Source: a virus
Lineage: Duplodnaviria; Heunggongvirae; Uroviricota; Caudoviricetes
DNA length: 64,000 bases
Virus record (IMG/VR): IMGVR_UViG_3300028797_000094
Location: 38,524-102,523 of that record
Direction: 5' to 3' (one strand)
A program made the translations under genes and the position numbers. Shown in pieces: positions 14 to 64,000 of the stretch (position 1 is the first letter of the stretch; each line of letters starts with the position of its first letter). The notes beneath the pieces were generated by a model. The model saw nothing but the letters and a program-made list of their open reading frames with translations, searched no databases and was not told the origin of the DNA.

Positions 14-2884
14 ATGAAAAAATCTGTAACACAATTTGATTTAAGTGCAGCATTTAAAGCATTAGATGAAATGGAATATCCAAAAGTCGAAGGTGGAATT
101 AGACCAAACAGAGTTGACTTAAAAGAAAATTTTGGTAGTAGAAAATTAAGAACAGATATCTTAGTTGAAGACTATTATGATGTTAATGATAATAATGATT
201 TAGAAGCTGCGGCTGAAGAAAGAGAAGGCGAAGTTGCTAAAGCTAAATTAGCAAGAATCGAAAAGATTGTTGATTTAGATGCTGAATCAGAAGATGATTT
301 ATTAACTTCTTACGAAGGCAAAGTTATTATTCAATGCCCTCAATGTATGACTTTATTCTATAAAGATGAAAAAGATTTAGAAGTTGATGAAAATAATCCA
401 GACGTTGTTAATATTAATGAAACTTGCCAACACTGTGGAAATACTTCAGGTTATATGGTAATTGGTAAAGTTGCTCCAGTTGAAAAAGCTGAATTAGACA
501 ACTTTGATACTGAAGACTTTGAAGAAGAACCAGTAGAAGAAACTGAAGAAGAAGTAGTTGAAGAAGAACCTACTGAAGAAGAAGATTTAGAAGATGTAGA
601 TGCATTAAATCTAGACTTTGATGAAGAAGAACCTGCTGAAGAAGAAGCAAATGAATCTTTAAATAAAGCAGCAATTCAAAAAGAAGTTGATAAGAAACAC
701 TGTGCAGACAATGATTCTAAAAATCTAACTTTAAATGAAAATTTAAATGATGACGATAAAATAGTATTTAAAAATCCAGTTATTGTCAATTTACCTAATG
801 ATAATGTTGGAACAATTGAAGTTGAAGCTGGTGATGAAGAATTAGCTTGACTTGTTAATAAATTAGCAACTGAAAGATATGAAGCAGAAGATGCTGCTAT
901 GGCTGGCTTTGAATACTTTGATGAAATTGCTGAAGAAAAAGGTTTAAGATATAATCAAATTTTTGAAGATGAATTTGAAGAAGGCTTAAAAGAAGATAAA
1001 GGTGAAGCTGCTGCACAAGATGAATTACAAGCTGAACATGAAGCTCCAATTGAAGAAGCTAAAAAAGTTTGTGAAAAATGTGGAAAAGAAATCTGTGAAT
1101 GTGATAAACAAGAATTAAAAGAATCTGAAGTTGAAGATATTATTAAATCAGTTGTTAATTCATGAGATCTAGGTGAAGCTTGTGAAGGCAAAGAATGCGA
1201 AAAACCTTTAAATGAAGAAGGTAATGCAGCTTGAAATGAACTTTCAAATGAACCAAGAGATCGTTATCATGTAATTAATAATGCTTGCAAGGCTGCAAAA
1301 GAAGCTGGTGAAGCTTGCCCATTTGCTGGTGGTAAATGAATCCTTTATGGTGTAGATAAAGCTTATGACCCAGTTGAAACTAAAGAACTTCCTGCTGCTA
1401 CAAAACCTGCAGAAGTTAAGAGAGTTAGAGATGAATTATTAAATAACAATGAAAATATTATTGGTGTTTATGTAAGTAGAATGTATAAAGAAATTGCTAC
1501 TAATAAAGCTGAAGAAGTAGAAATTTATACTTATATGAAATTTAAACCTGGCTTTGAAGATGATGGTGTTGAAGAATCTTTAAAAGAATGCAAAGGTAAA
1601 GATTGTTCAGCTGAAGAAGCAATTAAAAAGATTTTAATGAAAGAATCTTTAAATGAAGGCTTAACTGCTTATATAGATTTATCTGGTAGTTTAGCTGATA
1701 AAGAAGATGAATTAACAGCTAAGGCTAAAGAAGCCGGTGCAACTGATATTATTAAATTTGATAGCTCAACATTTGATGAAGTAATTGAAGGTGCACAAGA
1801 TAAAAAAGTTTTATTAGTTACTAATAATGATGATTATAAAAATAATACAGATTTAATTGGTAATAAAAATGTTAAAATTATTATGCTTGATGAATCTTTA
1901 AATAAAGCAGAAGTTCAAAAAGATGTTGATAAAAAACATTGTGCTGAAAATGACTCTGAAAACTTAACTTTAAATGAAGCTGCTGATGAAGAAGCAATTG
2001 AAGACGAAGTTGCTGAAGAAGAAATTCCTGCTGAAACTGAAGATATAGCTGATGAAGTAGCTGATGAAGAAACTGCTGAAGAAGCAGAAGAAAATACTGA
2101 TGAAGAAGCTTTAAATGAACAACCTGTTGAAACAACTATTGGTGAAATTAAAGAAGTGGCTGAAGAAGTTGCTGAAAAAGTTGCTGAGCCTGTTGAAGAT
2201 GAAGAAGCAGCTGAAGAACAAGCTGAAGAAATTAAAGAAATCGTTAATGAAGTTGTTGAAGATAAATTTGCTGAAGAAGCTGATGATTTAGAAAATGAAG
2301 AAGCTACTGAAGAAGAAGTTCCCGCTGAAGAAGAAGCTGCTGATGAAACAGAGGTTGTTGAAGAACCTGTTGAAGAAGTTGAAGAAGCTTTAACTGAAGA
2401 TAATAATGAAGCTTTATCTGATAAAGAATTTGCTGATTTATTAGCAAGTAAAGAAGCTCAAGAAGCTATTTTTGATGAAAACTTAAGAGAATGTGATCTT
2501 CAAGAAGTACTTGATAATATAGATGATATAGATGAAGAATCTTTTGAAGAAGCATTTACTAAAGCTTTAACTGATGTTTATGAAAATGTTAATAATTATA
2601 AACTTAAAGAATGTACTGTTAAAAATGGTAAATTAGTTGTTGAAGGTTTAATTAATTTTAAATCTAATGCTTCAAGAAATGCTACATGTACATTTGATAA
2701 AGCTCAAATAAGAAAATTAACAAATGAACTTGTTTTAGAAGGTTATAGTAAAGATTTTGCTAAACAAAGTAATTTTAAAGTTTCTTGTAATGTTGAAGAT
2801 AATGGTAAAAATCTTTTTGTAGAAAATCTTAACTATTCTTATAAAATTGGTGAAAATTTAGTTGAAGGATATACTAGAAAGTAA
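14..2884 (+). CDS. Acidic prohead core/scaffold-like or internal head protein, 956 aa (code 4)
   Basis: ORFs 14-850, 899-1165 and 1481-2884 share one frame, joined by in-frame TGA; SD GGAG at 1-4; very Glu-rich; CxxC..CxxC; many L-x-E motifs. Confidence 0.65.
653..739 (+). repeat. 87-bp intragenic repeat, copy 1 (ESLNKAAIQKEVDKKHCADNDSKNLTLNE)
   Basis: Near-identical to 1892-1978. Confidence 0.9.
1892..1978 (+). repeat. 87-bp intragenic repeat, copy 2 (ESLNKAEVQKDVDKKHCAENDSENLTLNE)
   Basis: Near-identical to 653-739. Confidence 0.9.
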
Positions 2885-2886
2885 TT

Positions 2887-2925
2887 AAGATTGGCTGGTC
2901 ATTAAGGCCAACTAATCTTTTTTCT
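2887..2925 (+). terminator. Probable intrinsic terminator
   Basis: AAGATTGG..GGTC/GGCC..CTAATCTT stem plus T tract. Confidence 0.6.
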
Positions 2926-2944
2926 TTAATGGAAAGGAGCTTAT

Positions 2945-3454
2945 ATGTCAGATAGACCTAATGATTATGGATTATTATTAAATAAAGATGCCAAACTTCA
3001 TAGAAGCTATTTTAAACAAATGTGTAAGCTTCTTGGCATTAGAATGCTTTATAGAAGACCACTAGATGGAAAGAACTTCAATCTACATGGTGATTTAGAA
3101 ACAAACTATGCTAAGCCTATTGAAGTAATGGTTATTTTTGAAGAACATCCAGATCAAAAAACTTTAAAGAAACATGGTTGAGTTGCTGAGCTTCAGGAAA
3201 ATTCTAGTATGATTCATGTTCCTTATGATTTAGAAGGTTTACAAGTTGGTTGTTTATTTGATGTTCCAAGTGGACTTGATAATGGACAAAGTAGAAGATT
3301 TAGGGTAATTAGTATGCAAAATATTATGATGTATCCTTCTTCTATCTCTTGTGAAATTGCTCCTGAATATGAAGATACTGATGAACTTTCAACAATTCAT
3401 GATTTCAAAACTACAACTAATAATTTATTAGTAGATTTGGAGGATGATGATTAA
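2945..3454 (+). CDS. Putative head-completion/neck protein, 169 aa (code 4)
   Basis: Two track ORFs joined across TGA 3179-3181; position upstream of tail terminator and sheath. Confidence 0.55.
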
Positions 3455-3455
3455 T

Positions 3456-4526
3456 ATGAATTTTAAACTTCCAGAATATACTTTAAATGAAAAATTTATT
3501 TTGAATGAAGCTGATGGCGATACTATTGCTACACTTTCTACTGGTGAACTTGGTAATCTTTTGTTAAATGACTCAGACTTAAGCTCGAAAAATTGACAAG
3601 CATATTTTGATTATTATTGAAAAGACTATAAAGATGTCTTTGAAAGAATTGGCCCAATTTTTTATAGAGAAGTTATTAAATATGGCTTTGATGAAAATCA
3701 TAATCCATTTATAAAATATTTAAAAACTATTTTAAAAAGCTCAAAAATATCTAATGAAAATATTACATATATAAGATATGGTGCTATTCATAATGCAGTA
3801 CTTGATGACAAATTAGCTTTACGTGATTTAATAGTAGATCCAGCTGAAGGATTTTTTGGAGTAAATAATATTATTTTTACTAATGGTTATTATACTGCTG
3901 CTGAAAAGCAATGTCCAGGTTATCTTGAGCTTCAACATAAAATGGAAGAAACTTTAAAAAAATGAGAAGGTAAACCATTACACGTTAAAGATAAAGGTTA
4001 TTATGTAAGTAAAGAAAATATATTATCTGCTTTTTGTATAGATTATAGCAAAGAAATAATTTTAAAGTCATATATTAGTGCACATAAAACAGAAGACGGA
4101 CTACCAATAGTCAATGTTACAGCTGGAAAATTTTTACCAATACAACAAGCTAGAACAAGTTTTTATCTTTTATGTAACCAAAAGCCAGAAGAAAATGATA
4201 GCAAAGATAATAAACGTATTTACGAAGCAACACCTTTTATTGAAAAATTAAAGACATGTTCAAAGGACTGAAAATGAATTTTTGCTTTTGTTATTACAAC
4301 TGAAGCTAAAAAAGATAAAGCAATTCGTGACACTACTGAGTATAAAAATAATGAAGCAGACTTAAAGAATGCTCTTAACACTTATGGTGAAACTATTAAT
4401 ATAGACCTTTTTATAAATCTTAAAGTTAAAATTGATGAGGTTATGGATAAATTTAATATAACTAATAAAGCAAAAATGATTACAGATTTGCTTAAATATT
4501 TTGAAGCTAATAAAGGTGAACGATAA
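3456..4526 (+). CDS. Hypothetical late protein, 356 aa (code 4; absent from ORF track)
   Basis: Open apart from TGA codons; SD GGAGG; N-terminal TLNE/ILNE motifs. Confidence 0.75.
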
Positions 4527-5544: not shown

Positions 5545-5562
5545 TTTGCTAAATTAATTGAA
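5545..5562 (+). promoter_or_regulatory. Class III (late-type) promoter variant
   Basis: TTTGCTAAATTAATTGAA upstream of the sheath gene. Confidence 0.6.
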
Positions 5563-5622
5563 AAATTAATCAATAATTTTAGTTTATTGATATTGTTAAA
5601 TAAATATAAGGAGAAAATAAAT

Positions 5623-7188
5623 ATGCCAAATATTTTAATTAAAGAATATGATTTAACAAAACCTGCTCAAAATGAATATAATAATTTTTCAGTAGTAGTT
5701 CCAGGATTTGTTAAAGCAGATAAATTAGGAAACTTTAATAAAGTTGCTGATGCTAATGGCATTTATGAAGTAGATAATCAAAAAGATTTTATTGCTAATG
5801 TTGGTTGTGTTGAATCTGGATTAACTGGACTTGATCAAGTTCCTGCAGTAGCAGCTAATCCTACTGAGCTATTTGAATTGGATGCACAAGAACAAGTTAT
5901 TCCTTATGAAATTGCTGAAGGCGTAGAAGTTTATTCACGTGCAGTAACAACAAAGCCTGAAGGTCATTTAGTTGCAATTGATCCAGAAGATAATAAAACT
6001 TATGAATATAGTTTAGAATTTGTAAGTGATGGTCATGGAACAGTTACTGAAAAATATTATTACTTCGAAACAGAAGAAGCTGAAGGTAAAGATGCTACAA
6101 CTGAAAGTGCTTATCATTTAGGAAATCAATTAGCATTTGAATTACTAGGCCTTGGATATACAGTTCTTTATAAGAAGATTGAAGAGTTAACAGACCTTGA
6201 AGATTTTGATGAATTCTGAGCACCTTTAAAAGACCGTGCAGTTTATGATTTTAGATATGTAACTACTGGTGATTACAGTGATGCTAATAACTTAGCAGTT
6301 AAAAATATAATTAAATTAGCTAAAAAATTAAATGAAGGCGATAGTGATGGTCGTGGTGATTGCATTGCTTTAATTGATTTACCAGCAGAAGAAACTTATC
6401 AAGGTAAAATTTTAAAAGATGCATTAGAAGCTATGCAAGCTAAAGCTAATGATTATAATGCAGGCGATGGCAGTTTAGGTAAATATACTGCTTACTTTGC
6501 ACCTCATTGGGAAATTAAAGAAGGTTCACAAAATAAGAGAATTTCTGGCAGCTCTACTGAATATACAAATTACAAATTCCCTGCTTGATTATATTATTTA
6601 GCATGTGCTAAGCAAGCTGAAATTAATAACTATGATGAATGGTTTGCTTGTGCAGGATATACTCGCGGTACTAATAATTTATATACAATTGAAAATATTG
6701 ATTATAAGTTTGGTGATGCTGCTGTTGAAGTATTACAAAAACGTGATACAAGTGATGCTCCAAGTATTAACCCATTAATTACTTTAAAAGGCAATCATTA
6801 TATTTGAGGTAATAGAACAGCTTATAAATCAGGTAATGTTGAAGATTTAGTAGCAAGTCATTTCTTAAATATTAGACAATTATGTTGTACATTAAAGAAA
6901 CAAATTTATATAGCTTGTAGAGAATTAACATTTGAACCTAATAGTAATATTTTATGGGTTCGCTTCTGCAACAAATTAAGACCAATTTTAGAAAAGATGA
7001 AATCAAATCAAGGTATTGATGATTATCTATTTGTAAAATTGGTTTCAGAAAAGAAAGCTACTTTAAAAGCTTTAATTAGAATTGTTCCAATTGAAGCAGT
7101 TGAAGATTTTGATATTTCTGTTACATTAGAAGACTCATTAGAAGGAACATTAGTTACTTTCGGTGAAGTTGATTCACAAAATGAGTAA
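5623..7188 (+). CDS. Tail sheath protein, 521 aa (code 4)
   Basis: WFACAGYTRG and YIWGNRT (W = TGA 6805-6807) sheath motifs; FLNIRQL; FEPNSNILW. Confidence 0.9.
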
Positions 7189-7216: not shown

Positions 7217-7816
7217 ATGGTAAATAATGATTATGATGTTAGTTTAAGTGCACAACACATTGCTGCTAATCTTGAAAAGTATGAAGCAGCTCGTACAGGT
7301 TTCTTTGTATTCTTAGTTAATGAAGCTTTAAATGAAAAAATTCGTGATAAGATTATCAATACATTCGGACGTACTGCAGAACTTCTTGCAAATGCTTCAG
7401 AAGCAATTAAATTAAATGTTGTTAAAGCATCTGTTCCAAGTTTCAAAGTTAATGTTTTAGAATACACTCGTGGTAATGAAAAGATTAAATTTGCTGGTAC
7501 TCCTGAATGAGGAGATGGCAGTATTACAGTTGATGATGTTGTTGGTTTAGATACTAAAGCTATTCTTCTTGGTTGAAAAGAATTAGCTTATGATACTAAA
7601 ACAAGAAAAGGTGGTCGTATGAAAGATTATAAATATGACTGCACATTAATTGAATACACTCAAGATTATGAACCATTAAGAACATGAACTTTATATGGAT
7701 GTTGAGTATCAGAAGTTTCTGATGAAGACTTCGATAAAGAAAATGATGGTAAACGTCAATTAACTGCTACTATTCAATACGATAGAGCAGAAATGATTGA
7801 TCAAATCGGTTTATAA
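7217..7816 (+). CDS. Tail tube protein (T4 gp19-like), 199 aa (code 4)
   Basis: KFAGTPEWGDGSITV, RTWTLYGCWVSEV, TATIQYD; four TGA at typical Trp positions. Confidence 0.9.
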
Positions 7817-7892: not shown

Positions 7893-7910
7893 TTCGCTAA
7901 ATTATATGAT
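7893..7910 (+). promoter_or_regulatory. Class III (late-type) promoter
   Basis: TTCGCTAAATTATATGAT. Confidence 0.7.
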
Positions 7911-8120: not shown

Positions 8121-8891
8121 ATGGAAGAAAGACAAACTAATTACACAGTAGCTGAAGGTTACGAATTACCTTCTAAAGGATTAATTTATGGCGACAAAAA
8201 TGTTAGCTCACATGTTGAGTTAAGAAGCATGACCGCAAAAGATGAGATGAAAAGACTAAATCCATCTTCAACACCTTTTAAAAATCTTGCAGATATTATT
8301 GAAGGCTGTATGATTGAAAAGCCGGCTATTCATGTTTATGATATGGCACTTGGTGACTATGAATATTTATTACATAGATTAAGAGTTGTTACATACGGTC
8401 CAAATTATAAAACAGCAGTAACATGTCCTTATTGTGGTACAACCACAGAAACAATATGCTCACTAGATGATTTAGAAGTAAAGGAATTTGATTTTGATAA
8501 ATTTGAAGAATTAAGAACTTTTACTTTACCAAATTGCGGAAGAACTATTACTATTAGATTTCAAACTCCACATATTATGGATGAGATTGATGCAAAAACA
8601 AAAGAAATGAAAAGAAAATATAAAGATGCAACAACTGATTTTCATGATTTAATTTTATTAACTTATATGATTGAAGCAGTTGATGGCGAACCAAAACAAA
8701 AATCTGAATTAGAAGGCTTTATTAACAAGCTTCCTGGAGCAGATTTTATGAAAATTATAAATAATATTAATAGATTAAATAATTGTATTGGTATTAAAAA
8801 TGAATTTTATGTAACTTGCGATGAATGTGAAAGCGAGATTAAGACATTTTTTCGTTTTGGACAAGAATTTTTTAGACCGTCAAACATCTAG
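8121..8891 (+). CDS. Baseplate hub assembly/tail chaperone (T4 gp26-like)
   Basis: LPSKG..Y, LRSMTAKDE, LRVVTYG, TCPYC, CDEC; follows the tail tube. Confidence 0.7.
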   Translation: MEERQTNYTVAEGYELPSKGLIYGDKNVSSHVELRSMTAKDEMKRLNPSSTPFKNLADIIEGCMIEKPAIHVYDMALGDYEYLLHRLRVVTYGPNYKTAVTCPYCGTTTETICSLDDLEVKEFDFDKFEELRTFTLPNCGRTITIRFQTPHIMDEIDAKTKEMKRKYKDATTDFHDLILLTYMIEAVDGEPKQKSELEGFINKLPGADFMKIINNINRLNNCIGIKNEFYVTCDECESEIKTFFRFGQEFFRPSNI

Positions 8892-50562: not shown

Positions 50563-50574
50563 GAGATTTCGTTT

Positions 50575-50871
50575 ATGGATAATAATTTACCAAAGACAAT
50601 TATCAAGTGTCCTCACTGTGGCTATGAGTATACTTTAGAAGAACTATTTTTAGCCAGCGATATTTTAGGAAAGCCTCGCGACTTAGTGCGTGATCCTCTT
50701 GGCAAAATTCTTTACTGCGGCTGAGAAGAAGATAGTGAACCAGAATATAAAACTAAATATATCTGTGATCACTGCAACAAAATTTTTAATGCAGAATTAA
50801 AGATCACAGCTGTAGCTACTAAAGAAGATGAGGCAGTAGACTTTACTAATCTAACAACAAGTCTATTCTAA
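50575..50871 (+). CDS. Zn-ribbon protein, 98 aa (code 4)
   Basis: CPHC..CDHC; one TGA; SD AGGAG. Confidence 0.7.
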
Positions 50872-50897
50872 GAAACGAAATTTGGGAGATTTCAGAA

Positions 50898-52592: not shown

Positions 52593-52595
52593 TAA

Positions 52596-52611
52596 TTGCT
52601 AAATTATTTGT
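52596..52611 (+). promoter_or_regulatory. Class III (late-type) promoter variant
   Basis: TTGCTAAATTATTTGT. Confidence 0.6.
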
Positions 52612-54822: not shown

Positions 54823-54951
54823 TTAAGATATTAACATGGTTAGTATCTAATTAATGCTAAGCAGGTTAACTAAATATTAATCATTTTAATATATATCCAA
54901 CGACAAAAGGATGTCGGAGGAAATTTATAATAACTAATAGGAGAGTTTAAA

Positions 54952-55449
54952 ATGGTTAAAACAAAAGAATTAGAAAAAGAAGTTAAAGAAGAAGTTGTAG
55001 AGGATAACTATGATGTTATCTATAAAAGTAAATTACTAAATAAAGAATTTACTGATCTTGATGAATTAAAGAAAGCGGAATCTGAATACAAATTAGAAGT
55101 CACTAAGAAAGAAGAAGCTAAGCTTGCTAGAAAAGAAGAAGCTGCTGTTGTACAAAAAGCTATTGACAATTATGAAATTGCTAAAGTAAAAGCTAATGAT
55201 GTAATTGCTAATGCTTATAAGGAATACAAGGATAAAGTAGCAGAAGCTGAAAAAGCCTTAGCTGAGATCGAGAAAACTGCTAGTGAAGCTTTGGATAAAT
55301 TCTTAGCTGATCATCCAGAGGGCTTCCACTATACTTACAAATCAGAAGATGGAAAAGTAGTTAGAGAATATAACTATTATAAAAATCGTTATGATGTATT
55401 TGATAACTTCAATCAATTCACAGAGCTATTAAAGAAACTTTGGTTTTAG
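54952..55449 (+). CDS. Coiled-coil hypothetical protein
   Basis: SD AGGAG. Confidence 0.75.
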   Translation: MVKTKELEKEVKEEVVEDNYDVIYKSKLLNKEFTDLDELKKAESEYKLEVTKKEEAKLARKEEAAVVQKAIDNYEIAKVKANDVIANAYKEYKDKVAEAEKALAEIEKTASEALDKFLADHPEGFHYTYKSEDGKVVREYNYYKNRYDVFDNFNQFTELLKKLWF

Positions 55450-55475
55450 TAAATAAATAAAATTTAACTGCTGAA

Positions 55476-55502
55476 AAAGACCGATGTAGAGTCGGTCTTT
55501 TT
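55476..55502 (+). terminator. Intrinsic terminator
   Basis: AAAGACCGA-TGTAGAG-TCGGTCTTT plus Ts. Confidence 0.8.
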
Positions 55503-55515
55503 AATTATACAATTA

Positions 55516-55570
55516 TGAAAGCGTTTTCATAAACTTTTCTATTTACAAATTATAATTTTTGTGATATAAT
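55516..55570 (+). promoter_or_regulatory. Class I sigmaA promoter with cre-like operator
   Basis: TGAAAGCGTTTTCA; TTTACA 55542; TATAAT 55565. Confidence 0.85.
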
Positions 55571-55601
55571 TTATGTGTAAAATAAATTACGGAGGAATAT
55601 T

Positions 55602-55841
55602 ATGGAAAAAGAAAAAGAATTTATTGAACAAATTTTAACTATCAGAGATTATTGGGCAAACATTCATCCTAATAATGGCAAAGAGGCAATTGATGGCTTT
55701 ATTCATTCATTATTAGTTATGTTTGATGGCGATGCTGGTGCAAATGATTTTCATTTTATTGTACTAACAGATGCAGTTGATCAACAAAATATTAATGATC
55801 AATATCCGCTACATGAAGTATTTCATATGATGAATAAATAA
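55602..55841 (+). CDS. Early hypothetical protein
   Basis: SD GGAGG. Confidence 0.75.
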   Translation: MEKEKEFIEQILTIRDYWANIHPNNGKEAIDGFIHSLLVMFDGDAGANDFHFIVLTDAVDQQNINDQYPLHEVFHMMNK

Positions 55842-55896
55842 TGAAAACGTTTTCATTAAAAAAACTATTTACAAATAATTTAAATCGTGATATAAT
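55842..55896 (+). promoter_or_regulatory. Class I sigmaA promoter with cre-like operator
   Basis: TGAAAACGTTTTCA; TTTACA 55868; TATAAT 55891. Confidence 0.85.
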
Positions 55897-55931
55897 ATAA
55901 GTGTAAATTTCAATGAGGAGGATATTATAAA

Positions 55932-56393
55932 ATGAGATTACAACATGAACGTTCTTATTACAATGCAGAAAATGTTTTAGTTAGATTAGAAACTATGATT
56001 GCTGATGGTTGGTCAAAACCAATTAGATCAGTGTATGATGAATTATCAATCTTTGATTGGTGGCCAGAAAAGTTAACAGTATTTCATATGAAACAAATGA
56101 GAACATTTTTAAAGACTGCTATTAAGTTAGGTTATAAAGGTTATGTTTGTTTTAAGGTTGGTGCTTCTGGTTGTGCTAATGGTATGTGGGCTTCTAAAGC
56201 AGAAGGCAAAGTTCAAAATGGCGATATTTATTCACCAGATGGCGAAGCAATTTATCGTTCATTTACACCAGATTATACTTATTATAGTTTCTGTGATAAA
56301 GATGAAAATTGGTATCCAGCACAAGAAGAGTTTGATTCTTTAAAGACAACTAAGATGCTTGAACAAGCATTACAAGCAGCAGGTATAATTTAA
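55932..56393 (+). CDS. Early hypothetical protein
   Basis: SD GAGGAGG; 5 Trp, all TGG. Confidence 0.8.
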   Translation: MRLQHERSYYNAENVLVRLETMIADGWSKPIRSVYDELSIFDWWPEKLTVFHMKQMRTFLKTAIKLGYKGYVCFKVGASGCANGMWASKAEGKVQNGDIYSPDGEAIYRSFTPDYTYYSFCDKDENWYPAQEEFDSLKTTKMLEQALQAAGII

Positions 56394-56458
56394 GGAAAGC
56401 GTTTTCATACGCTTTCTTTAAAAAAACTATTTACAAAATGTTCAAACTGTGATATAAT
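56394..56458 (+). promoter_or_regulatory. Class I sigmaA promoter with cre-like operator
   Basis: GGAAAGCGTTTTCA plus overlapping half-site ACGCTTTC; TTTACA 56430; TATAAT 56453. Confidence 0.8.
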
Positions 56459-56487
56459 ATATATAGAAAATAACTAAGGAGGAACAT

Positions 56488-56730
56488 ATGGAAAAAGTTT
56501 TTATTACAAGAGCACTTCCTTGTGCAGGCGGATTGGTTGTTGAAGATGCAGTACGTTATAATGTTGATGCAACTGTTGTTTATACAGATGGCAATATTGA
56601 TTATGTTGTTTTAGCAGGAACTAAATTTGATCTTTATGATTTTTTAATGGATAATTTTTCTGAAGATGATTATGATTATAATAAAATTCTTAATGAAGCA
56701 ACATTAGTTAAATATGAAATGGAGGACTAA
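56488..56730 (+). CDS. Early hypothetical protein
   Basis: SD AAGGAGG. Confidence 0.7.
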   Translation: MEKVFITRALPCAGGLVVEDAVRYNVDATVVYTDGNIDYVVLAGTKFDLYDFLMDNFSEDDYDYNKILNEATLVKYEMED

Positions 56731-56731
56731 T

Positions 56732-57016
56732 ATGGAATACATTCATAGAGAAACAGGCAAGACTTATAAAAAATTTATTCAGGCAGAAGTAGAATATCAC
56801 AGAGCAATTTGTGGTGGACTAAATGAATTAGTTAAAGTTGAAAACTTAGAACTTCCAACTAAGAAAGATATTTATAATCATGTTCGTGCTGAGAAGAAAA
56901 TAATTGCAAGTGAATGCAAATATAATACAGTTCGTGATAATATATTTTATAGAATATATTATGGTGCAACAATTTATAAACCAATGGAGGAAAATAATGG
57001 AAAAGAAAGTTGTTAA
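56732..57016 (+). CDS. Early hypothetical protein
   Basis: SD GGAGG; start moved. Confidence 0.7.
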   Translation: MEYIHRETGKTYKKFIQAEVEYHRAICGGLNELVKVENLELPTKKDIYNHVRAEKKIIASECKYNTVRDNIFYRIYYGATIYKPMEENNGKESC

Positions 57017-57509
57017 TGTTTTTGGTAGAAATAATTATTTATTAGGTGTTGACAAAGATAATATCAGATATTATATTGAAGAACCTAATTTTGATTGTGG
57101 TTGGTATTGGGGAGGTTTATATATAGAAACATTTACAAACAATTATCAACCAACAAGATCTGTTGATATTAGCACACATTCACATTTTGATTCTATGTTT
57201 TTAAATAGCACAGATTCATTTGGACCTGAAGTATTTAAGAAAAGATTTAAAACTACTGTGTTGACAGATGATGAGTTGTGGAAGCTTTTAGAATTAGGTC
57301 GTACTTTCTATACTCTTAGAAGTGCTGCTGATTTATTTCATATTGGTGGAAGTCATATTACAAGAAATAATTGTTATGATGTTATTAAAGACCAAGATAT
57401 GTATGAACAAATAGTGAAGGTTAAGATCCCAGCATTGGTTGCAGAAATACTACAATTATTAGGCGGAACAAAGACTGCAAAAGATTTTGAAAATAAAGTA
57501 AAATTTTAG
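56997..57509 (+). CDS. Early hypothetical protein
   Basis: SD GGAGG; FDCGWYW motif; start moved. Confidence 0.75.
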   Translation: MEKKVVNVFGRNNYLLGVDKDNIRYYIEEPNFDCGWYWGGLYIETFTNNYQPTRSVDISTHSHFDSMFLNSTDSFGPEVFKKRFKTTVLTDDELWKLLELGRTFYTLRSAADLFHIGGSHITRNNCYDVIKDQDMYEQIVKVKIPALVAEILQLLGGTKTAKDFENKVKF

Positions 57510-57564
57510 GAAAGCGCTTTCATAGCGTTTTTCTATTTACAAATTAAATAAATTGTGATATAAT
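57509..57564 (+). promoter_or_regulatory. Class I sigmaA promoter with cre-like operator
   Basis: GGAAAGCGCTTTCA; TTTACA 57536; TATAAT 57559. Confidence 0.85.
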
Positions 57565-57594
57565 ATAACTATAAAATAAATAAGGAGAAAAAAT

Positions 57595-57903
57595 ATGTTA
57601 ACAGAAAGTTTAAAAAAGAAAGTTCAATTTGTTAAAGAAATCAGTGAGGCTGTTGTTAAAGTTCAACCAAATGTTATTGGAATGAGCTATGAAGTTTATC
57701 AAAGCAAAAAGAATCCAAAATGGATTACTGAGTTTTTAATTGTTAATTATGATGGTGGAGCAATGTCAGTTAGAAATTGTTCAGCTACAAGTTGTAGTGG
57801 AATCTTTAAAGAGATTGCTAAGCTATTAGATCATGGCTATTATGATGAATTAGATTATTACACTGATATCATCAATAGCGATTCGGAGTTAATCAGTGAA
57901 TAG
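57595..57903 (+). CDS. Early hypothetical protein
   Basis: SD AAGGAG. Confidence 0.75.
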   Translation: MLTESLKKKVQFVKEISEAVVKVQPNVIGMSYEVYQSKKNPKWITEFLIVNYDGGAMSVRNCSATSCSGIFKEIAKLLDHGYYDELDYYTDIINSDSELISE

Positions 57904-58276
57904 CGATATTATGGATCTACTGACTGAAGAACTTCTTGAGTTGGTAGAGCGAGCTGAAGCTAAGCGACATCTAAACTTACAAAGAATAGAGTCGCTTAGA
58001 GACTACAGCGATGCAAAGACCGAGCGAAAGAAAACAAAAATTTATGCAGACTGTTTTAAAAAAGTTTCTGTTAATCTTTTAGAAAAATATACAGAAGCAT
58101 TAAAACAGAATCAAAGAGATATTACTTTACTAACCGATGCAAATCTTTTAGATGAGTATGCGGCATTTTATCGTGAAGAAGTTGAAATGTATGATAATAT
58201 AATAAATGAATATTATGATTATCTAAAACAGGGACACATTATAGATGCATTTTTAGGAAAAGAAAGAGAGGACTAA
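57896..58276 (+). CDS. Early coiled-coil hypothetical protein
   Basis: SD GGAG, GTG start. Confidence 0.65.
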   Translation: MNSDIMDLLTEELLELVERAEAKRHLNLQRIESLRDYSDAKTERKKTKIYADCFKKVSVNLLEKYTEALKQNQRDITLLTDANLLDEYAAFYREEVEMYDNIINEYYDYLKQGHIIDAFLGKERED

Positions 58277-58280
58277 ATGT

Positions 58281-58463
58281 ATGAAGCGCAGGATTCATCT
58301 ACGTGATAATATTAGTGGCAAAGACATTACAGGTACTGTAGAGATTCCTGCAAAGGATCATTTAGCAGCACAACAAAAGTACAAAGCCAAAGTGTTCAAA
58401 CCAAAGAAAGGCAAAGGTTCATTTACCCGCCGAAAGAAACATAAGAAACAGGAAGAAGAATAA
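58281..58463 (+). CDS. ArfA-like basic peptide (putative ribosome rescue factor)
   Basis: KVFKPKKGKGSFTRRKKH resembles the ArfA motif KKGKGSYxRKxKH; SD GAGG. Confidence 0.55.
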   Translation: MKRRIHLRDNISGKDITGTVEIPAKDHLAAQQKYKAKVFKPKKGKGSFTRRKKHKKQEEE

Positions 58464-58528
58464 TGAAAGCGTTTTCATAAAACTTTTTTCAATTTTCTAT
58501 TTACAAACTTTTTATTTTGTGATATAAT
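58464..58528 (+). promoter_or_regulatory. Class I sigmaA promoter with cre-like operator
   Basis: TGAAAGCGTTTTCA; TTTACA 58500; TATAAT 58523. Confidence 0.85.
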
Positions 58529-58558
58529 ATTAGTGTAAGATAAATTAAGGAGGATATT

Positions 58559-59089
58559 ATGAACTTACAAATTACTATTGAAGAAAAAACTATTAAAGAT
58601 TTTTTGAAGCAAAGACTTATTGGTAAGAACTTTGGCTATTGTTGGGACTATGATGTTAAAAATGCATTTGATGATTTTTTAAAATCTTATAATATTGATA
58701 CAAGAAACTTCAGTTGGCAAAAACATCGTGGCGAAAAACAATCATTCAGACTTACTTATAAAGGTTTTGAATATGGTTATGTTGAAGCTAAGAAACAAAA
58801 AGTTAATACACACCATTCTTGGTTAGGTGGAACTTATTGTGATTGGACTTTTAAAGATGTTAATGTTGTTATTTATAAAGGCACTTTAAATGCTGCAATT
58901 GAAGACGTTGAACAAAGAGCTGTTGAAAAACAAAATAGAGACAACGCACAAGAACAAGCAGCAATAAAGATTTATAAATTAGTTATTGAAAATTGTAAAG
59001 ATCGTTATGAAGCTGATAACATGATTGATTATATTAAAAGTCATCGTTATACTTTACAAGATAAGATGAAAAAAAGCGCACAAGCTTAG
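58559..59089 (+). CDS. Early hypothetical protein
   Basis: SD AAGGAGG. Confidence 0.75.
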   Translation: MNLQITIEEKTIKDFLKQRLIGKNFGYCWDYDVKNAFDDFLKSYNIDTRNFSWQKHRGEKQSFRLTYKGFEYGYVEAKKQKVNTHHSWLGGTYCDWTFKDVNVVIYKGTLNAAIEDVEQRAVEKQNRDNAQEQAAIKIYKLVIENCKDRYEADNMIDYIKSHRYTLQDKMKKSAQA

Positions 59090-59098
59090 GAGGACACT

Positions 59099-59521
59099 AT
59101 GGGAACTTTATGGATGAAAGATAATACACTATCACAAGAAACAATAGATCGTCGTAGAACTTATCTTGAGAAAAGTGAAAAGCTAAATGAAGTTGCTAAA
59201 GATTACTTTAAGGTCTTAGGCTTTAAAGTAATCAAGCATAAGTTTGGTTACAAAGCTTGCAAGAGTGATGTTGACTTAACTTTCTATTTTGGTGCAACTG
59301 TTGTTGATACTTGTTGGAGCTATGCTGAAAATCATGGTGAATATAGAGTTCATGCTAAAATACCTTATACTGATATTGAAGTTGCTGATTTTTATATTAA
59401 ACTTAACACAGTAGAAACTGATGCTGAAGAAGAAACTAAAATTAGAAAGTTATTTGCTGATAGTGATTTTGATAAGCTTGTAAGATGGAGACTTCCATAT
59501 ACAAATAAAAAGTTTATTTAA
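59099..59521 (+). CDS. Early hypothetical protein
   Basis: SD AGGAGG. Confidence 0.75.
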   Translation: MGTLWMKDNTLSQETIDRRRTYLEKSEKLNEVAKDYFKVLGFKVIKHKFGYKACKSDVDLTFYFGATVVDTCWSYAENHGEYRVHAKIPYTDIEVADFYIKLNTVETDAEEETKIRKLFADSDFDKLVRWRLPYTNKKFI

Positions 59522-59542
59522 AAAGTAGAGGAAGAGGATTTA

Positions 59543-59607
59543 TGAAAACGTTTTCATAGATCTTTTTTCAAAAAACTATTTACAAATTTAAATATTTGTG
59601 ATATAAT
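59543..59607 (+). promoter_or_regulatory. Class I sigmaA promoter with cre-like operator
   Basis: TGAAAACGTTTTCA; TTTACA 59579; TATAAT 59602. Confidence 0.85.
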
Positions 59608-59646
59608 ATAAGTGTAAAAATAAATAAAGCAAGGAGGATAGTATTT

Positions 59647-60363
59647 ATGTTTTACAAAACTGGTGTTGATATTTGCAATAATCGTTCAATGTATGATTTT
59701 CTAAATAATCATTTTATGTACGATACAATGAACAGTTGGAATGGATTGAAGAGCATTGCTAATAATGTTAAGATTTATAACTTACATTTAGAAGGCGATG
59801 AATGGGAAGCATTAAAAGCTTTAGAGCGTGATGAGTATTTTGAAGTTAATGATATGATTGAAGATTGGGAATATCTTCATAAAGGTTATAAAGTTGGCTT
59901 CAATGGTCGTTCAGGCGGATACTTAGTATTATATAGTGATAATGATAATGGAAATATTTTACCTGATTATTTATATGGATTTGATTCATATGAAGACTTC
60001 AAAGATCATTATCTAACTTATAATTATGGCACAATGTCAGATGCTAAGAATGAACTTAGAGGTTATGTTGAATTAGTTCGTGATTTTGATGTGTTGTGTG
60101 ATCGTATTCGTGATTATGTTAATGAACTTTCTAAGAGAGATTTAATGGCAGATTATCTTGAAGATGTTGTTGAAGCTTTTAATGAACATTATTGTGATGA
60201 TTTAGCTTGGCTTGAGTTTTCTGGATTAGAAGTTATAGATGGTCAAGTTGATTTAAGTGAAATCAATCAATTACAATGTTTAAGTGATGCATTTTTAAAT
60301 ATGTTCAATAATGATTATAAAATTGTTATTGAAGAAAGTGTTTTAAGATTGGAGGCAAAATAA
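59647..60363 (+). CDS. Early hypothetical protein
   Basis: SD AAGGAGG; GFNGRSGGYLVL motif. Confidence 0.8.
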   Translation: MFYKTGVDICNNRSMYDFLNNHFMYDTMNSWNGLKSIANNVKIYNLHLEGDEWEALKALERDEYFEVNDMIEDWEYLHKGYKVGFNGRSGGYLVLYSDNDNGNILPDYLYGFDSYEDFKDHYLTYNYGTMSDAKNELRGYVELVRDFDVLCDRIRDYVNELSKRDLMADYLEDVVEAFNEHYCDDLAWLEFSGLEVIDGQVDLSEINQLQCLSDAFLNMFNNDYKIVIEESVLRLEAK

Positions 60364-60800
60364 TGGCTGATGTAGTTATTAAATGTTCAGGTAAGATGCG
60401 AGAAATTGAAATTGATCCAGTTTCAGAATTAGATGCTGAGCTTGATGAAGACTTAGTAGAAGCAAATGAAGAAGACTTCACTGATGTAGAGGAGTTAGAT
60501 GCAGACACTAATGAAAAAGTTGTCTACCAAGTTTGGTTATTAGGTCGTGGTGAGTTTGATGATGTTAATGATTTTACATATTTAATTGACGACTACAATG
60601 ATGTAGAAGAGGCAATTAAATGTTGGAACTTCTTTAATGAAAACGAAATTAGTCTAATTAAGAATAAAGATGAAAACTTCTTTATTCCTGCTGATATATA
60701 TTCAGTAGATTTAGTTGTTGAAGAAGTTGCAGTTGATGAAGATGGCAATGAAGAATGTTTTAATATAGTAAGAGAGACTAATATTAAAACAAAGGCGTAA
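60363..60800 (+). CDS. Acidic early hypothetical protein
   Basis: TAATG coupling. Confidence 0.75.
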   Translation: MADVVIKCSGKMREIEIDPVSELDAELDEDLVEANEEDFTDVEELDADTNEKVVYQVWLLGRGEFDDVNDFTYLIDDYNDVEEAIKCWNFFNENEISLIKNKDENFFIPADIYSVDLVVEEVAVDEDGNEECFNIVRETNIKTKA

Positions 60801-60803
60801 GTT

Positions 60804-61400
60804 ATGAAGCGTAGAAATAAACTTCACGCTTATCAGAGAGCTTCTGAGCGCTTAGGCTTACATAGACTTGAGACTGAGCGCTTAGTGAAAGAAGCTTGGT
60901 CAGCAGGCAAGACTTATAATGAGCTTGAAGATGGACCACTTAGAAATTATGTTTATCATAAGAGTAGAAAGAAGAAAGTTAAAGTATATAAAAACATTTT
61001 ATTTATCTTTAACAAGACGAGCAAGACTTGTATTACAATGTATAAAATACCTAACAAAATTTTATTATTAGAAGAAAGGAATCAAGAAATGAAAAAGAGT
61101 AAAAATGTTAGAAGTAAATATTTAGGATTACAATTTTTAAATAGTGAAGGTCAAGTATGGACAGTTGTGAGAGTTTCAAAGACTTCGTACAACAACTATC
61201 GTTTCAATTTGAGTCGTGCTGCAGAAAATGATGCAACTAAGACAATTTCAATTACAAGCAAGACAATGAAAAAGCTTGCTACAAGTTATTTAACTATTGA
61301 AGATATCTTAACACACAAAGAAGATTTAAGAAAGAAAAATATCAATACTTACAGAAATACTTCTTGGTATACTTGGAGCGAGGCTAAGAGTTGTAAGTAA
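60804..61400 (+). CDS. Basic early hypothetical protein (possibly two domains)
   Basis: ORF; HAYQRASERLG. Confidence 0.65.
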   Translation: MKRRNKLHAYQRASERLGLHRLETERLVKEAWSAGKTYNELEDGPLRNYVYHKSRKKKVKVYKNILFIFNKTSKTCITMYKIPNKILLLEERNQEMKKSKNVRSKYLGLQFLNSEGQVWTVVRVSKTSYNNYRFNLSRAAENDATKTISITSKTMKKLATSYLTIEDILTHKEDLRKKNINTYRNTSWYTWSEAKSCK

Positions 61401-61425
61401 AAAACGAAATTAAGGAGGTTTCGTT

Positions 61426-62280
61426 ATGTTCAAATTATTTATTGAAGATTTAAAACAAGCAGCATCTTTTTTAGAAAAGAGCTGGAAAGAATATACAGTT
61501 ACGCAATTAGCGAATATGTTATGTCAAGCAATGGATGATGGCGATGATTTAATGATCAACGCCACATTCAGTGGTTTGATGCTACATTATCAACCGATGA
61601 TGGTGAAGATGTACCAAAAACATGGACGCGTATTAAAAATGGAGATCGGTGATATTGCATCTTGGTTTAGTAGATCTATTATGCAAGCGTGTGATCCTAA
61701 AAACAGAACATGGCAAAAGAAAGAAAAGAATTGCAGTGCTGGAACCGTAATTAATCAAATTTTAAATACAAGATATATTGCAATGGCTTATTATGAATCT
61801 AACTTAGATCTACACAAAGCTAACTTCGCCACTACAAGTTTAGATGCGCCACTTGATTATGATACAGATGATACAAGAGCAGACTTATTGGTGAGCGAAT
61901 ATCCTACACCAAGTGATCAATTTAGTGGAGCTTATGCAATAATCCAAGATCTGTTAGATGATAATAAGATCATTGAAGCTATCATCGCAGAAACAATTGC
62001 TTACAACGATTGCTACAAAGTTAATAGCAAGACAGTTAAAGAAGTTGGCGAAGATGGAACAGTTAAGAAGTATAAAAATATATCTACTGAGTTTTGGGCT
62101 TATAGAGCAGTGCAAATCTTATCTAACTTGCCTGAGAATTATGAAGATTATTTCTTAGACAGATTTAATGTAGATAAAGAAATGTTTGAAACAGGTTTGA
62201 ACAAGATTAGAACTTCTAAAAACCCTAAACTTTATGAGTATTTAGAGTCAACAAAAAATTGCTTGAGATCTATTTTATAG
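61426..62280 (+). CDS. Putative phage sigma-like factor
   Basis: Region-2-like helices and TTSLDAPLD; weak recognition. Confidence 0.45.
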   Translation: MFKLFIEDLKQAASFLEKSWKEYTVTQLANMLCQAMDDGDDLMINATFSGLMLHYQPMMVKMYQKHGRVLKMEIGDIASWFSRSIMQACDPKNRTWQKKEKNCSAGTVINQILNTRYIAMAYYESNLDLHKANFATTSLDAPLDYDTDDTRADLLVSEYPTPSDQFSGAYAIIQDLLDDNKIIEAIIAETIAYNDCYKVNSKTVKEVGEDGTVKKYKNISTEFWAYRAVQILSNLPENYEDYFLDRFNVDKEMFETGLNKIRTSKNPKLYEYLESTKNCLRSIL

Positions 62281-62290
62281 ATTTCAAGTT

Positions 62291-62303
62291 TTTATTGTAT
62301 AAT
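62291..62303 (+). promoter_or_regulatory. Class II promoter
   Basis: TTTATTGTATAAT. Confidence 0.65.
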
Positions 62304-62355
62304 AATAGAGAAACGTAATTTCTGTAATTTCGTTAATTTCATTTTGGAGGTTTTT

Positions 62356-63078
62356 ATGTATAAAGATATAATGTCGCCACATGCTTTTGGCAGATACAAT
62401 ATTTATTTAGTGCAACTAATTGGATTAGAAGCTGCAGTGTATTGGGAACTGTTGTATTCTATTTCTGACCTGGCCTACAGTAAGTGTGAGAGAAAAGAAA
62501 CACTAAATACTAAAGGATACTTCACAGTAGACCGTAAATATGTCAAGGAAAGAACAGGAGTCGCTACTGAGCAGCAAAGAACTTATGATCGCGCTTTCAT
62601 GAAGATGGGTGCAGTGATAATTAGTGAAGAAGATTCCGATGCGCTTTATGTGGATAATGGTGTGATGATTAAATTTCTAACTTCCGAAATTTCAAATTCA
62701 GAGAAAAAGAAGATCTTTACAGAAGCTTTATCTGATGGCAAATTAGTGATTAGAGAGCAAAAAGGAGCTGCGAAGAAGAATGGCATGATCTCGCGCTGGA
62801 AACAATGGGTGAGCGGATCAGAAGAGTTACTCGCAGCATATGCTGAAGCTTTTAGTGTTTGGTATAGCGCAGGCATGCAGACCGATGCGATGATTAAAGC
62901 AAAGATTGATGCAGTAGAAACTGCCACTAAAGATGAAGGATTAAAGATAGAGATCTTAAGAAGAGCTACACAAAGTGGATACAGAGATCTTGAGGCAGTG
63001 ATCTGGAGAGCTAAACAGGATTACAATCCACTAAAAAATCAGAAGACTTCTACAGGAATTGGGAATCAGGTATTTTAA
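62356..63078 (+). CDS. Putative replication initiator (N-terminal winged helix)
   Basis: YNIYLVQLIGLEAAVY..GYFTVDRKYVKERTGV..QQR pattern of phage initiators. Confidence 0.55.
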   Translation: MYKDIMSPHAFGRYNIYLVQLIGLEAAVYWELLYSISDLAYSKCERKETLNTKGYFTVDRKYVKERTGVATEQQRTYDRAFMKMGAVIISEEDSDALYVDNGVMIKFLTSEISNSEKKKIFTEALSDGKLVIREQKGAAKKNGMISRWKQWVSGSEELLAAYAEAFSVWYSAGMQTDAMIKAKIDAVETATKDEGLKIEILRRATQSGYRDLEAVIWRAKQDYNPLKNQKTSTGIGNQVF

Positions 63079-63106
63079 AAGATCAGGTTTAAATCTGGTC
63101 TTTTTA
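63078..63106 (+). terminator. Intrinsic terminator
   Basis: AAAGATCAGG-TTTAAA-TCTGGTCTTT plus Ts. Confidence 0.75.
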
Positions 63107-63119
63107 TTTTACTTAAAAA

Positions 63120-63174
63120 TGAAAACGTTTTCATTGTTTTTTCTATTTACAAATATTTTGTTTTATGATATAAT
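63120..63174 (+). promoter_or_regulatory. Class I sigmaA promoter with cre-like operator
   Basis: TGAAAACGTTTTCA; TTTACA 63146; TATAAT 63169. Confidence 0.85.
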
Positions 63175-63206
63175 ATATATAGAAAATTAAGTAAGAGGTA
63201 TAATAA

Positions 63207-63635
63207 ATGAAAGTAAAGTTTGATTTTAATTTAGATGCGTGGATTCAAAATCTTGAAATTGAGGCTGACTCTATAGAACAAGCAAAAGACAAACTAATGT
63301 CTATGTCTTTAGAAGATATGATCGAAGCTGGTGCTTATATGAAAGACTTTAATATCGACTCAGTTGACACAGAAATTACTGAAGCAACTTATACTGTTAA
63401 AGTTGTTAGTATTGATTATGCTATTGAAAGTTATGATGTAGATGAGTTTGATACTATGTCTGATGAAGAAGTAGAAGCAGAGATCGCTAGAGTTAAATCA
63501 AGTCTTCCACAAGAACTTGAATTAGAAATTGAATGTGAGCCTGATGATCTAGATGATTATGTTGCTGATGCTATATCAGATGAAACAGGCTGGTTAGTTA
63601 ATGACTGTGAATATGAAATCGTGAGTAAGAGATAA
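63207..63635 (+). CDS. Acidic early hypothetical protein
   Basis: SD GAGG. Confidence 0.75.
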   Translation: MKVKFDFNLDAWIQNLEIEADSIEQAKDKLMSMSLEDMIEAGAYMKDFNIDSVDTEITEATYTVKVVSIDYAIESYDVDEFDTMSDEEVEAEIARVKSSLPQELELEIECEPDDLDDYVADAISDETGWLVNDCEYEIVSKR

Positions 63636-63639
63636 TCTC

Positions 63640-63694
63640 TGAAAGCATTTTCATTATAAAAACTATTTACAAATTGTTTAAAATATGATATAAT
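63640..63694 (+). promoter_or_regulatory. Class I sigmaA promoter with cre-like operator
   Basis: TGAAAGCATTTTCA; TTTACA 63666; TATAAT 63689. Confidence 0.8.
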
Positions 63695-63728
63695 ATAATT
63701 GTAAATAATTAAGGAGGAAATGTTATTT

Positions 63729-63893
63729 ATGGAAAAAACTTATATTGTTAAAATTATTAAAACTGATTTTGTTGAGGAAGAAGAAGAAATCTTTGAATAC
63801 GAAGAAGAGCTCGACGATGAAAAAATGAGCGATCAAGAAATCGCACAACAACTTTTAGAAACTGCTTTGGCTGGCTGCACTGATGAAGATTAG
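63729..63893 (+). CDS. Acidic 54-aa early protein
   Basis: SD AAGGAGG. Confidence 0.65.
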   Translation: MEKTYIVKIIKTDFVEEEEEIFEYEEELDDEKMSDQEIAQQLLETALAGCTDED

Positions 63894-63904
63894 GAGGAGC
63901 TGAA

Positions 63905-64000
63905 ATGTTAAAGAAAGATATTAAAGCAATTAAAGAAGTTTATATTGATGAACGTGAATGTGGACACACTATTTGCGACTTTGATGATGAACAACACGAC
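63905..64000 (+). CDS. Early protein, truncated by the window end
   Basis: SD AGGAGG; open to the end. Confidence 0.6.
   Translation, partial: MLKKDIKAIKEVYIDERECGHTICDFDDEQHD

Follow-up and report, generated by a model that had tools for sequence, protein, structure and literature searches.

Borges et al. (bioRxiv 10.1101/2021.08.26.457843) described the Jade, Sapphire and Agate gut phages, in which TGA is recoded (code 4) with a bias towards structural and lysis genes; these phages have close relatives with the standard code, and TGA stops are depleted at low guanine-plus-cytosine (GC) content. The 'code change module' of the Jade phages, composed of a suppressor tRNA, a tryptophanyl-tRNA synthetase (TrpRS) and release factor 1 (RF1), is itself encoded in the standard code (bioRxiv 10.1101/2021.08.26.457843). 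Here, we analyze a 64,000-nucleotide stretch of DNA (the window), which comprises bases 38524-102523 of the IMG/VR record IMGVR_UViG_3300028797_000094, a virus contig of 237,392 bp and 29% GC that is rated 100% complete. It belongs to an uncultured phage from gut or rumen that codes almost wholly on the plus strand, and in which in-frame TGA codons, which stand for tryptophan, are coupled to a late promoter motif.

The phage has much in common with the Jade, Sapphire and Agate phages. All are large, low-GC phages of the animal gut that use TGA for tryptophan in structural and lysis genes and keep their replication genes in the standard code, and they share a suppressor tRNA(UCA) with a standard-code TrpRS, the near absence of TGA as a stop, and standard-code close relatives. 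The comparison is one of features, not of phylogeny, and the module differs: here it has no RF1 gene, it has a Lon gene between tRNA and TrpRS that only one relative shares, and it adjoins a tRNA array. Moreover, whereas the word 'promoter' is absent from the paper of Borges et al., the code borders described here are tied to three promoter motifs, gene by gene and on one strand.

Block-wise dual coding has been described by Pfennig et al. for crAss-like and Lak phages, in which TAG is read as Gln (Mgcod, bioRxiv 10.1101/2022.06.29.495998), and TAG=Gln recoding in phages has been validated by proteomics (PMC9523058). As in those phages, the early genes here are readable in both codes and the late genes only in the alternative one, with the suppressor tRNA in the standard-code part. 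However, crAss-like and Lak phages have few large blocks, usually after a strand switch, whereas more than 10 blocks are interleaved on one strand here, and the codon is TGA for Trp instead of TAG for Gln. In a 2026 survey, alternative codes were found in 8.75% of rumen jumbo phages. The AP1 pair of TrpRS and tRNA-Trp(UCA) from phage 'code change' operons, reported in a 2025 preprint, inserts Trp at UGA in Escherichia coli extracts and cells, with a yield limited by the strength of release factor 2 (RF2) (PMC12636597). The present phage likewise has a TrpRS beside a tRNA(UCA); the two pairs are likened by description, and a corresponding function of the present one is presumed.

Phage T4 runs a temporal cascade of early sigma-70, middle and late promoters, with no code change. 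The present phage resembles it in having three promoter classes, of which the early one is near the sigma-70 consensus and the late one is distinct and drives structural genes, and in its Gp23-family major capsid protein. Unlike in T4, the motifs are different, and no sigma-like or RNA polymerase gene was detected here. We found no paper combining an alternative genetic code, a phage and a late promoter; the texts searched never tie code borders to promoter motifs, and a literature search on the late motif returned unrelated primers only.

TGA codons and promoter motifs

When the plus strand is read with code 4 instead of code 11, the open reading frames (ORFs) of at least 100 amino acids increase from 135.5 to 200.7 kb, and ORF fragments merge into full-length proteins; the S74 fibre reaches 1672 amino acids under code 4 only. 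For comparison we used two IMG/VR genomes of relatives, both of them recoded: the 232-kb G001 and G002, a fragment of 101 kb. The conserved tryptophan positions that an earlier note on this DNA had assigned to TGA could all be located. In the sheath, W407 of I-W-GNRT is TGA at 6805-6807, and G002 has TGG-encoded Trp there (VWGNRT). The tube contains four TGA and no TGG, and all four face TGG-encoded Trp in G002. The LysM-like gene 13924-14253 spells the last two residues of 'YWW' as TGG-TGA at 14134-14139, and the TGA of KWDNVYA, at 20263, is located 14 residues upstream of the Peptidase_S74 domain. The gene 15637-20655, put by the same note at about 21 TGA against 2 TGG, has precisely these counts.

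The codons that stand opposite TGA in G001 and G002 are TGA (52 and 17) and TGG (21 and 15), followed by TAT, TTT and TTC; this spectrum equals that of TGG codons, and no glycine codon is prominent. The SNF2 helicase can be aligned with PDB 1z63 from residue 110 to 561, spanning TGA-278. In addition, more than 400 in-frame TGA codons lie in conserved, collinear genes of several independent assemblies. As judged from these alignments, TGA stands for tryptophan in the recoded genes.

Three motif classes were obtained from upstream regions: A (early), B (middle) and C (late, the 'class III' of the earlier note).

Class A (early): GAAARCGYTTTC palindrome, then TTTACA, 17 nt and TG-n-TATAAT; early-block sites at 55542, 55868, 56430, 57536, 58500, 59579, 63146 and 63666
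Class B (middle): TTGTATAAT at 29618-29626, plus strand; consensus TTATTGTATAATAWTAT; further intergenic copies at 32521, 35781, 44849, 50119 and 62295
Class C (late): consensus TATTTGCTAAATTAWWTG; TTTGCTAAATTA at 5545-5556, plus strand, upstream of the sheath gene, and again at 7893-7904 (1 mismatch), 20700-20711, 39691-39702, 43392-43403 and 52595-52606 (1 mismatch)

The blocks of the window and their codon counts are as follows.

14-29563, plus strand: late block 1, 20 genes, 81 TGA, 13 TGG; tail and baseplate genes, assigned with PHROG and Pfam (including Peptidase_S74), among them sheath 5587-7188, tube 7217-7816, hub 8121-8891 and S74 fibre 15637-20655
29648-39640, plus strand: middle-motif block in the standard code, 20 genes, 3 TGA, 48 TGG
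39733-44649, plus strand: late block 2, 6 genes, 22 TGA, 3 TGG
44875-48202: 5 genes, 1 TGA (a second-to-last codon), 15 TGG
50284-52592, plus strand: mixed operon, 3 genes, 3 TGA, 6 TGG
52642-54822, plus strand: gene for an acidic protein of 726 amino acids, 3 TGA, 6 TGG, directly after the late-type motif ATTGCTAAATTA at 52595-52606
54952-63635, plus strand: early block, 16 genes, 0 TGA, 40 TGG

The window genes behind the late motif TTTGCTAAATTA contain 106 in-frame TGA against 22 TGG. Late block 1 is fed by late motifs at genome positions 37672 and 37750, just before the window, and late block 2 begins 31 nt past the motif at 39691-39702. The early block bears out the previous observation that all of its Trp codons are TGG. 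All three TGA of the block 29648-39640 fall within one orphan ORF, 31290-31637, which matches nothing in Pfam, lacks homologues in five relatives and is not counted as a proven gene.

To avoid operon assumptions, the count was restricted, genome-wide, to first genes lying within 150 nt of a motif.

Class C first genes: 29 genes, 117 TGA, 42 TGG; 21 of 24 Trp-containing genes use TGA
Class B first genes: 23 genes, 7 TGA, 61 TGG; one gene holds all 7 TGA
Class A first genes: 12 genes, 1 TGA, 27 TGG; the TGA is in 45823-47565, as its second-to-last codon

The late class differs from classes A and B pooled (8 TGA, 88 TGG) with a Fisher p of 3e-26 for codons and 2e-9 for genes. Thus, the tabulation of TGA and TGG per gene against promoter class under codes 4 and 11, as the earlier note had proposed, demonstrates that TGA use is coupled to the late motif. 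Its claim of TGA use in every Trp-containing gene behind a class III promoter is correct for the window but fails genome-wide, where three first genes, and the major capsid protein, do without TGA.

The two modes of TGA use are independent of how genes are classified. Of the 111 genes that have 3 or more Trp codons, 49 are TGA-free versus 4.9 expected (heterogeneity chi2 435, p=3e-40), and in most of the remaining ones the TGA share is 0.6-1.0. The replication genes PolA, ligase, DnaB, clamp and NrdD use TGG only. The TGA-free genes stop at TAA (129) or TAG (30), and no gene needs a TGA stop, as previously claimed, with one possible exception. This is the AAA ATPase gene 45823-47565 (plus strand), which sits behind an early promoter at 45757-45785 and has 4 TGG and a single TGA at 47557-47559 as its second-to-last codon. 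The gene ends in ...GAA TGA TAT TAG, with TAG two codons after the TGA, and both codes give a nearly identical protein.

Along the plus strand the code label switches 34 times, 15 of them at a recognised motif, and the borders of multi-gene blocks all have a fitting motif. The minus strand agrees, since a gene with 8 TGA and 0 TGG has a late-type motif and is flanked by TGG-only genes with middle-type promoters; so does G001, with 58 TGA and 29 TGG in late genes and 0 and 13 in early ones. The 11-mer core of the late motif, TTGCTAAATTA, occurs 28 times on the plus strand and never on the minus strand of the genome. The eight early-block promoters are top-ranked in a generic sigma-70 scan of 54800-64000, all on the plus strand; each matches 11 of 12 consensus positions with TG before the -10 hexamer and 17-nt spacing, and they are predicted to be active. 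A palindrome of the form ATGAAAACGTTTTCAT lies ahead of every early promoter in 55500-63700, a position that would suit an operator bound by a regulator of the host or the phage. A domain search of the genome found no sigma-70 region 2 and no RNA polymerase beta or beta-prime domain.

The decoding module and the relatives

A tRNA-Trp(UCA) had been expected to lie outside the window, and this is where it was found: ARAGORN run on the full genome reports 20 tRNA-type genes, one of which has a TCA anticodon. The module comprises three genes.

Genome 229814-229888: tRNA(UCA), 127,291 bases beyond the window end (ARAGORN; Rfam tRNA, 54.5 bits)
Genome 229989-232358: Lon protease (TIGR00763, 809 bits)
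Genome 232345-233430: full-length TrpRS (TIGR00233, 317.5 bits against a cut-off of 176.75)

The tRNA(UCA) is 75 nt long, folds into a cloverleaf and carries G73. It has A1, G2, G3, the loop frame CU-N-CAAA and the 3' end ...CCUG-CCA in common with the phage tRNA-Trp(CCA). In bacterial tRNA-Trp, both G73 and the first pairs of the acceptor stem are identity elements. The tRNA begins 6 nt after the end of a class B motif and is followed by a hairpin and a T-run; a second class B motif is located between the tRNA and Lon, and TrpRS comes after Lon. All three genes are TGA-free, and therefore tRNA(UCA) and TrpRS should be producible under the standard code. After a short gap the module is followed by the ordinary tRNA array (234.2-237.1 kb), which includes tRNA-Trp(CCA) and lies behind a class A promoter. 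The stretch at genome 229490-229620, just upstream of the tRNA(UCA) promoter, is GC-rich, ORF-free and structured-looking, with no Rfam family at the gathering threshold.

The module was compared across related genomes.

G006: recoded, 223 kb, with terminal repeats; has all of tRNA(UCA), Lon and TrpRS, and a class B motif precedes the tRNA
G001: recoded; TrpRS present, candidate tRNA split by a 290-nt insert
G002: recoded; tRNA(UCA) present
G003, G004 and G005: 220-233 kb, near-complete, standard code; no TrpRS found

The tRNA(UCA) of G006 retains G73 but starts with G1-C72. The best tRNA matches in G003 and G005 are tRNA-Trp(CCA), with no UCA tRNA in the stretches scanned. The split tRNA of G001 (174676-175039; L012 7662-8025) lies at the position equivalent to that of tRNA(UCA), behind a middle-type promoter, with the insert in its anticodon loop. 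Depending on the splice point its anticodon would be GCA, UCA or UUA, and a search of the insert against Rfam gave no group I intron. Among these relatives, a decoder tRNA and TrpRS are seen to co-occur with recoding.

The late 17-mer TTTGCTAAATTATATGA is found in more than 100 IMG/VR stretches. The raw scan mixed relatives with chance matches, and a homology filter was applied; 59 of the 108 stretches fetched encode homologues of genes of this phage, mostly late ones. TGA in these homologous genes drops as GC rises (Spearman -0.69, p=3e-8): 21 of 21 loci at a GC of at least 0.366 are without TGA, and many at 0.345 or below have it. In the higher-GC relatives, 7 of 79 homologous late genes even end in TGA. 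Because these relatives share the late motif and the late genes under the standard code, without TrpRS, we conclude that the late regulon and its motif are older than recoding, a low-GC overlay that is seen together with the decoding kit.

Mechanism and alternative explanations

The best explanation as a whole, to which we give a probability of about 85%, is that a phage-encoded decoder makes the TGA-rich late genes readable and that TGA is confined to the late regulon. Host RNA polymerase would read the sigma-70-type early promoters, and the TGA-free early and middle genes would be translatable by a standard-code host. The middle-type promoters (TTGTATAAT) would drive the replication genes, the stand-alone tRNA(UCA) and the Lon-TrpRS pair, and the phage TrpRS would charge tRNA(UCA) with tryptophan. 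Genes behind the late motif TTTGCTAAATTA, mostly for tail, baseplate and fibre, would then become translatable through their many TGA codons. Only for the late regulon would the decoder be available in time, and this would be why TGA is confined to it. AT-driven drift from TGG to TGA would be tolerated in late genes once the decoder kit is present, and the block on premature late translation would be a side effect. We infer the three-class timing, the charging of the tRNA by the phage TrpRS, the host code and the means of outcompeting RF2.

Several observations weigh against this explanation. Although its gene lies in a late operon, the major capsid protein has 4 TGG and 0 TGA. The same counts apply to the G001 homologue (77% identity), and three further first genes after a late motif use TGG only. 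The chief exception in the window is the operon 50284-52592, which is preceded by early motifs at 49859 and 49960 and a middle motif at 50119, yet bears TGA.

50284-50562: small gene, TGG only
50575-50871: zinc-ribbon gene, 1 TGA
50898-52592: SNF2 helicase gene, 2 TGA, 4 TGG

Here the claim that genes behind host promoters are TGG-only breaks down, with 3 TGA, although it stands for the 16-gene early block. The SNF2 helicase homologues have 4 TGA in G001 and 5 in G002. Middle blocks outside the window contain a metallophosphoesterase gene with 4 TGA and a ClpP-like gene with 1, and the gene 23970-26036 (7 TGA) has a middle-type nonamer 30 nt upstream. Of the 34 code switches on the plus strand, 19 are single-gene exceptions with no recognised motif, and the early, middle and late order is drawn from gene content. 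Finally, neither an RF-1 or PCRF domain nor an identifiable antagonist of RF2, which the earlier note had expected along with or instead of the tRNA, was found in a search of the 237-kb genome. With the 21 TGA of the fibre gene, 90% read-through at each would leave a fraction of 0.11 full-length, and 99% would leave 81%; ORFs with 21 to 43 in-frame TGA require near-complete read-through.

Two of these genes deserve a separate remark. Genome 33682-35001 (window -4841 to -3522) encodes the major capsid protein of the Gp23 family, the one abundant late protein that is TGA-free; this may reflect selection for efficient translation. The SNF2 helicase is a DNA-metabolism gene, and its full-length product would need the code switch first.

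The host code was approached through FTHFS. The nearest bacterial homologues (54-60% identity) come from metagenome-assembled genomes (MAGs) of 1.0-1.6 Mb and 26-32% GC, labelled Bacilli or Mollicutes; the homologues themselves use TGG only, and RF2 is above the curated cut-off in 9 of 10 low-GC MAGs with the nearest homologues. The TGA-free early genes, the late genes that end in TGA in standard-code relatives and the RF2 genes of these MAGs together support, indirectly, a host that terminates at UGA. The earlier proposal of a code 11 host gains ground to this extent. If organisms such as those of MAG contigs L038-L058 are the hosts, a 237-kb phage would amount to approximately 15-20% of the host genome; the host assignment is weak.

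The alternative that comes closest is a translational lock that has itself been selected, with TGA enriched to stop late proteins, lysis functions and homing endonucleases from being made from read-through or leaky transcripts. Borges et al. proposed such a function (bioRxiv 10.1101/2021.08.26.457843), and the earlier note likewise proposed a translational lock. Read-through transcription is a real risk here, since recoded and standard blocks interleave on one strand with 34 switches; a TGA-only gene has its own late-type motif inside a TGG-only minus-strand operon, and the SNF2 helicase is recoded in this phage, G001 and G002. However, the TGA share of Trp codons in recoded genes, 0.77, does not exceed the A-ending share of AAR, GAR, CAR, TTR and AGR codons (0.83-0.96). 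This is what neutral AT pressure would give once TGA is tolerated, and it fits drift under a constraint, with the lock as a consequence. The standard-code relatives run the same late regulon without in-frame TGA, TGA falls with GC, and the major capsid protein, the late protein of highest abundance, is TGA-free. We therefore favor tolerated drift, because the TGA share is near that of the other NNR pairs and the same late regulon works without TGA; a selected lock is possible, but we hold it to be clearly the less likely origin.

Other readings concern the decoder, the host and the codon itself, and all seem to be improbable. The demand for high read-through leads us to consider that the phage removes host RF2 activity through an unrecognised factor, for which the Lon between tRNA(UCA) and TrpRS is the most concrete candidate. 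Lon is kept at the same position in the closest relative, G006, but as a conserved part of the kit it is weakened by the lack of a match at E<1e-10 in the recoded G001 and G002, and we regard the proposal as a long shot. Slightly more doubtful still is a near-cognate tRNA-Trp(CCA), of host or phage, as the main decoder after RF2 has been inactivated by an unnamed factor. The phage does encode a tRNA-Trp(CCA), high read-through seems to demand a loss of RF2 activity, and of the TGA-recoded phages of Borges et al., just 35% have suppressor tRNAs (bioRxiv 10.1101/2021.08.26.457843). Nevertheless, tRNA(UCA) has its own promoter and terminator and adjoins TrpRS; it is retained in the recoded G002 and G006, with a candidate copy split by an insert in G001, and no UCA tRNA is among the best matches in standard-code relatives. 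A host that is itself a code-4 Mollicute reading UGA as Trp, with the phage following its code, is suggested by the small, low-GC MAGs labelled Mollicutes or Bacilli, and is very improbable in our view. Such a host would not ban TGA from early genes; the 0 TGA among 40 Trp codons of the early block therefore count against it, as does the excess of TGA-free genes (49 versus 4.9). The same reading is opposed by RF2 in 9 of 10 MAGs, by their TGG-only FTHFS genes, by the TGA-terminated late genes of standard-code relatives with the same late motif, and by the fact that the phage brings its own tRNA(UCA) and TrpRS. We give almost no credence to TGA as glycine (code 25) or selenocysteine, or to the TGA-broken frames as pseudogenes or assembly errors, even though ARAGORN labels the tRNA 'SeC' owing to its TCA anticodon and TGA in phages is taken as Gly in one recent survey (PMC13037316). 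We reject codes 11 and 25, selenocysteine and pseudogenes because TGA aligns to Trp codons and the SNF2 alignment crosses TGA-278: in relatives TGA faces TGG, TGA, TAT and TTT instead of GGN. The tRNA is an ordinary cloverleaf resembling the phage tRNA-Trp(CCA), with TrpRS as its neighbor, and more than 400 TGA in conserved collinear genes of independent assemblies argue against errors.

Other features and significance

By PHROGs and Pfam, the window has matches to tail sheath, tail tube, baseplate hub and S74 fibre, and the rest of the genome to a Gp23-type major capsid protein, PolA, ligase, DnaB, clamp, NrdD, topoisomerase and FTHFS; most late genes are without a family in these databases. 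In gene 13924-14253 the LysM match is weak, at 15 bits and thus below the cut-off of 20.9. Searches of the window gave neither a tRNA nor an Rfam family. A megablast of 20 kb against GenBank phages gave no match, nor did a comparison of the sheath with solved structures by sequence; among cultured phages, Bacillus phage SP-15 is the closest by sheath protein, with 28% identity over 43% of the protein.

Some further observations stand by themselves. The six consecutive TGA-using late genes of 39733-44649 encode 217-421 amino acids each, with no Pfam match for 39733, 40452 and 43384, and may be a paralogue array. The stretch 48203-50283 is ORF-free, has a higher GC of 0.33-0.35 and is rich in ACTATATATAG-type and GCCGAAATTGCC-type repeats, with two early and one middle promoter at its end; it may serve as a replication origin or have another regulatory role. 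At genome 221962-222149 (L009 1962-2149), c-di-GMP-I riboswitch aptamers occur as a tandem pair (65 and 61 bits), upstream of the gene 222100-222909. The PolA homologue of G001 (211183-214927) aligns in two pieces approximately 1.1 kb apart, suggesting an intein, an intron or an inserted gene.

A switch to TGA=Trp that makes late genes readable has already been published, and this genome is a clear new example instead of a new principle. For annotation, standard gene callers break up about one third of the genome's genes, and the phage family needs code 4 in the late blocks only. The genome is an unusually clean specimen, since the code borders are marked, one gene at a time, by three sharp promoter motifs, the tRNA of the decoder is under a middle-type promoter of its own, and the same late regulon occurs in relatives with and without recoding. 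It therefore offers a ready comparative and experimental system for asking whether recoding is a timing lock or tolerated drift, and how RF2 is overcome.

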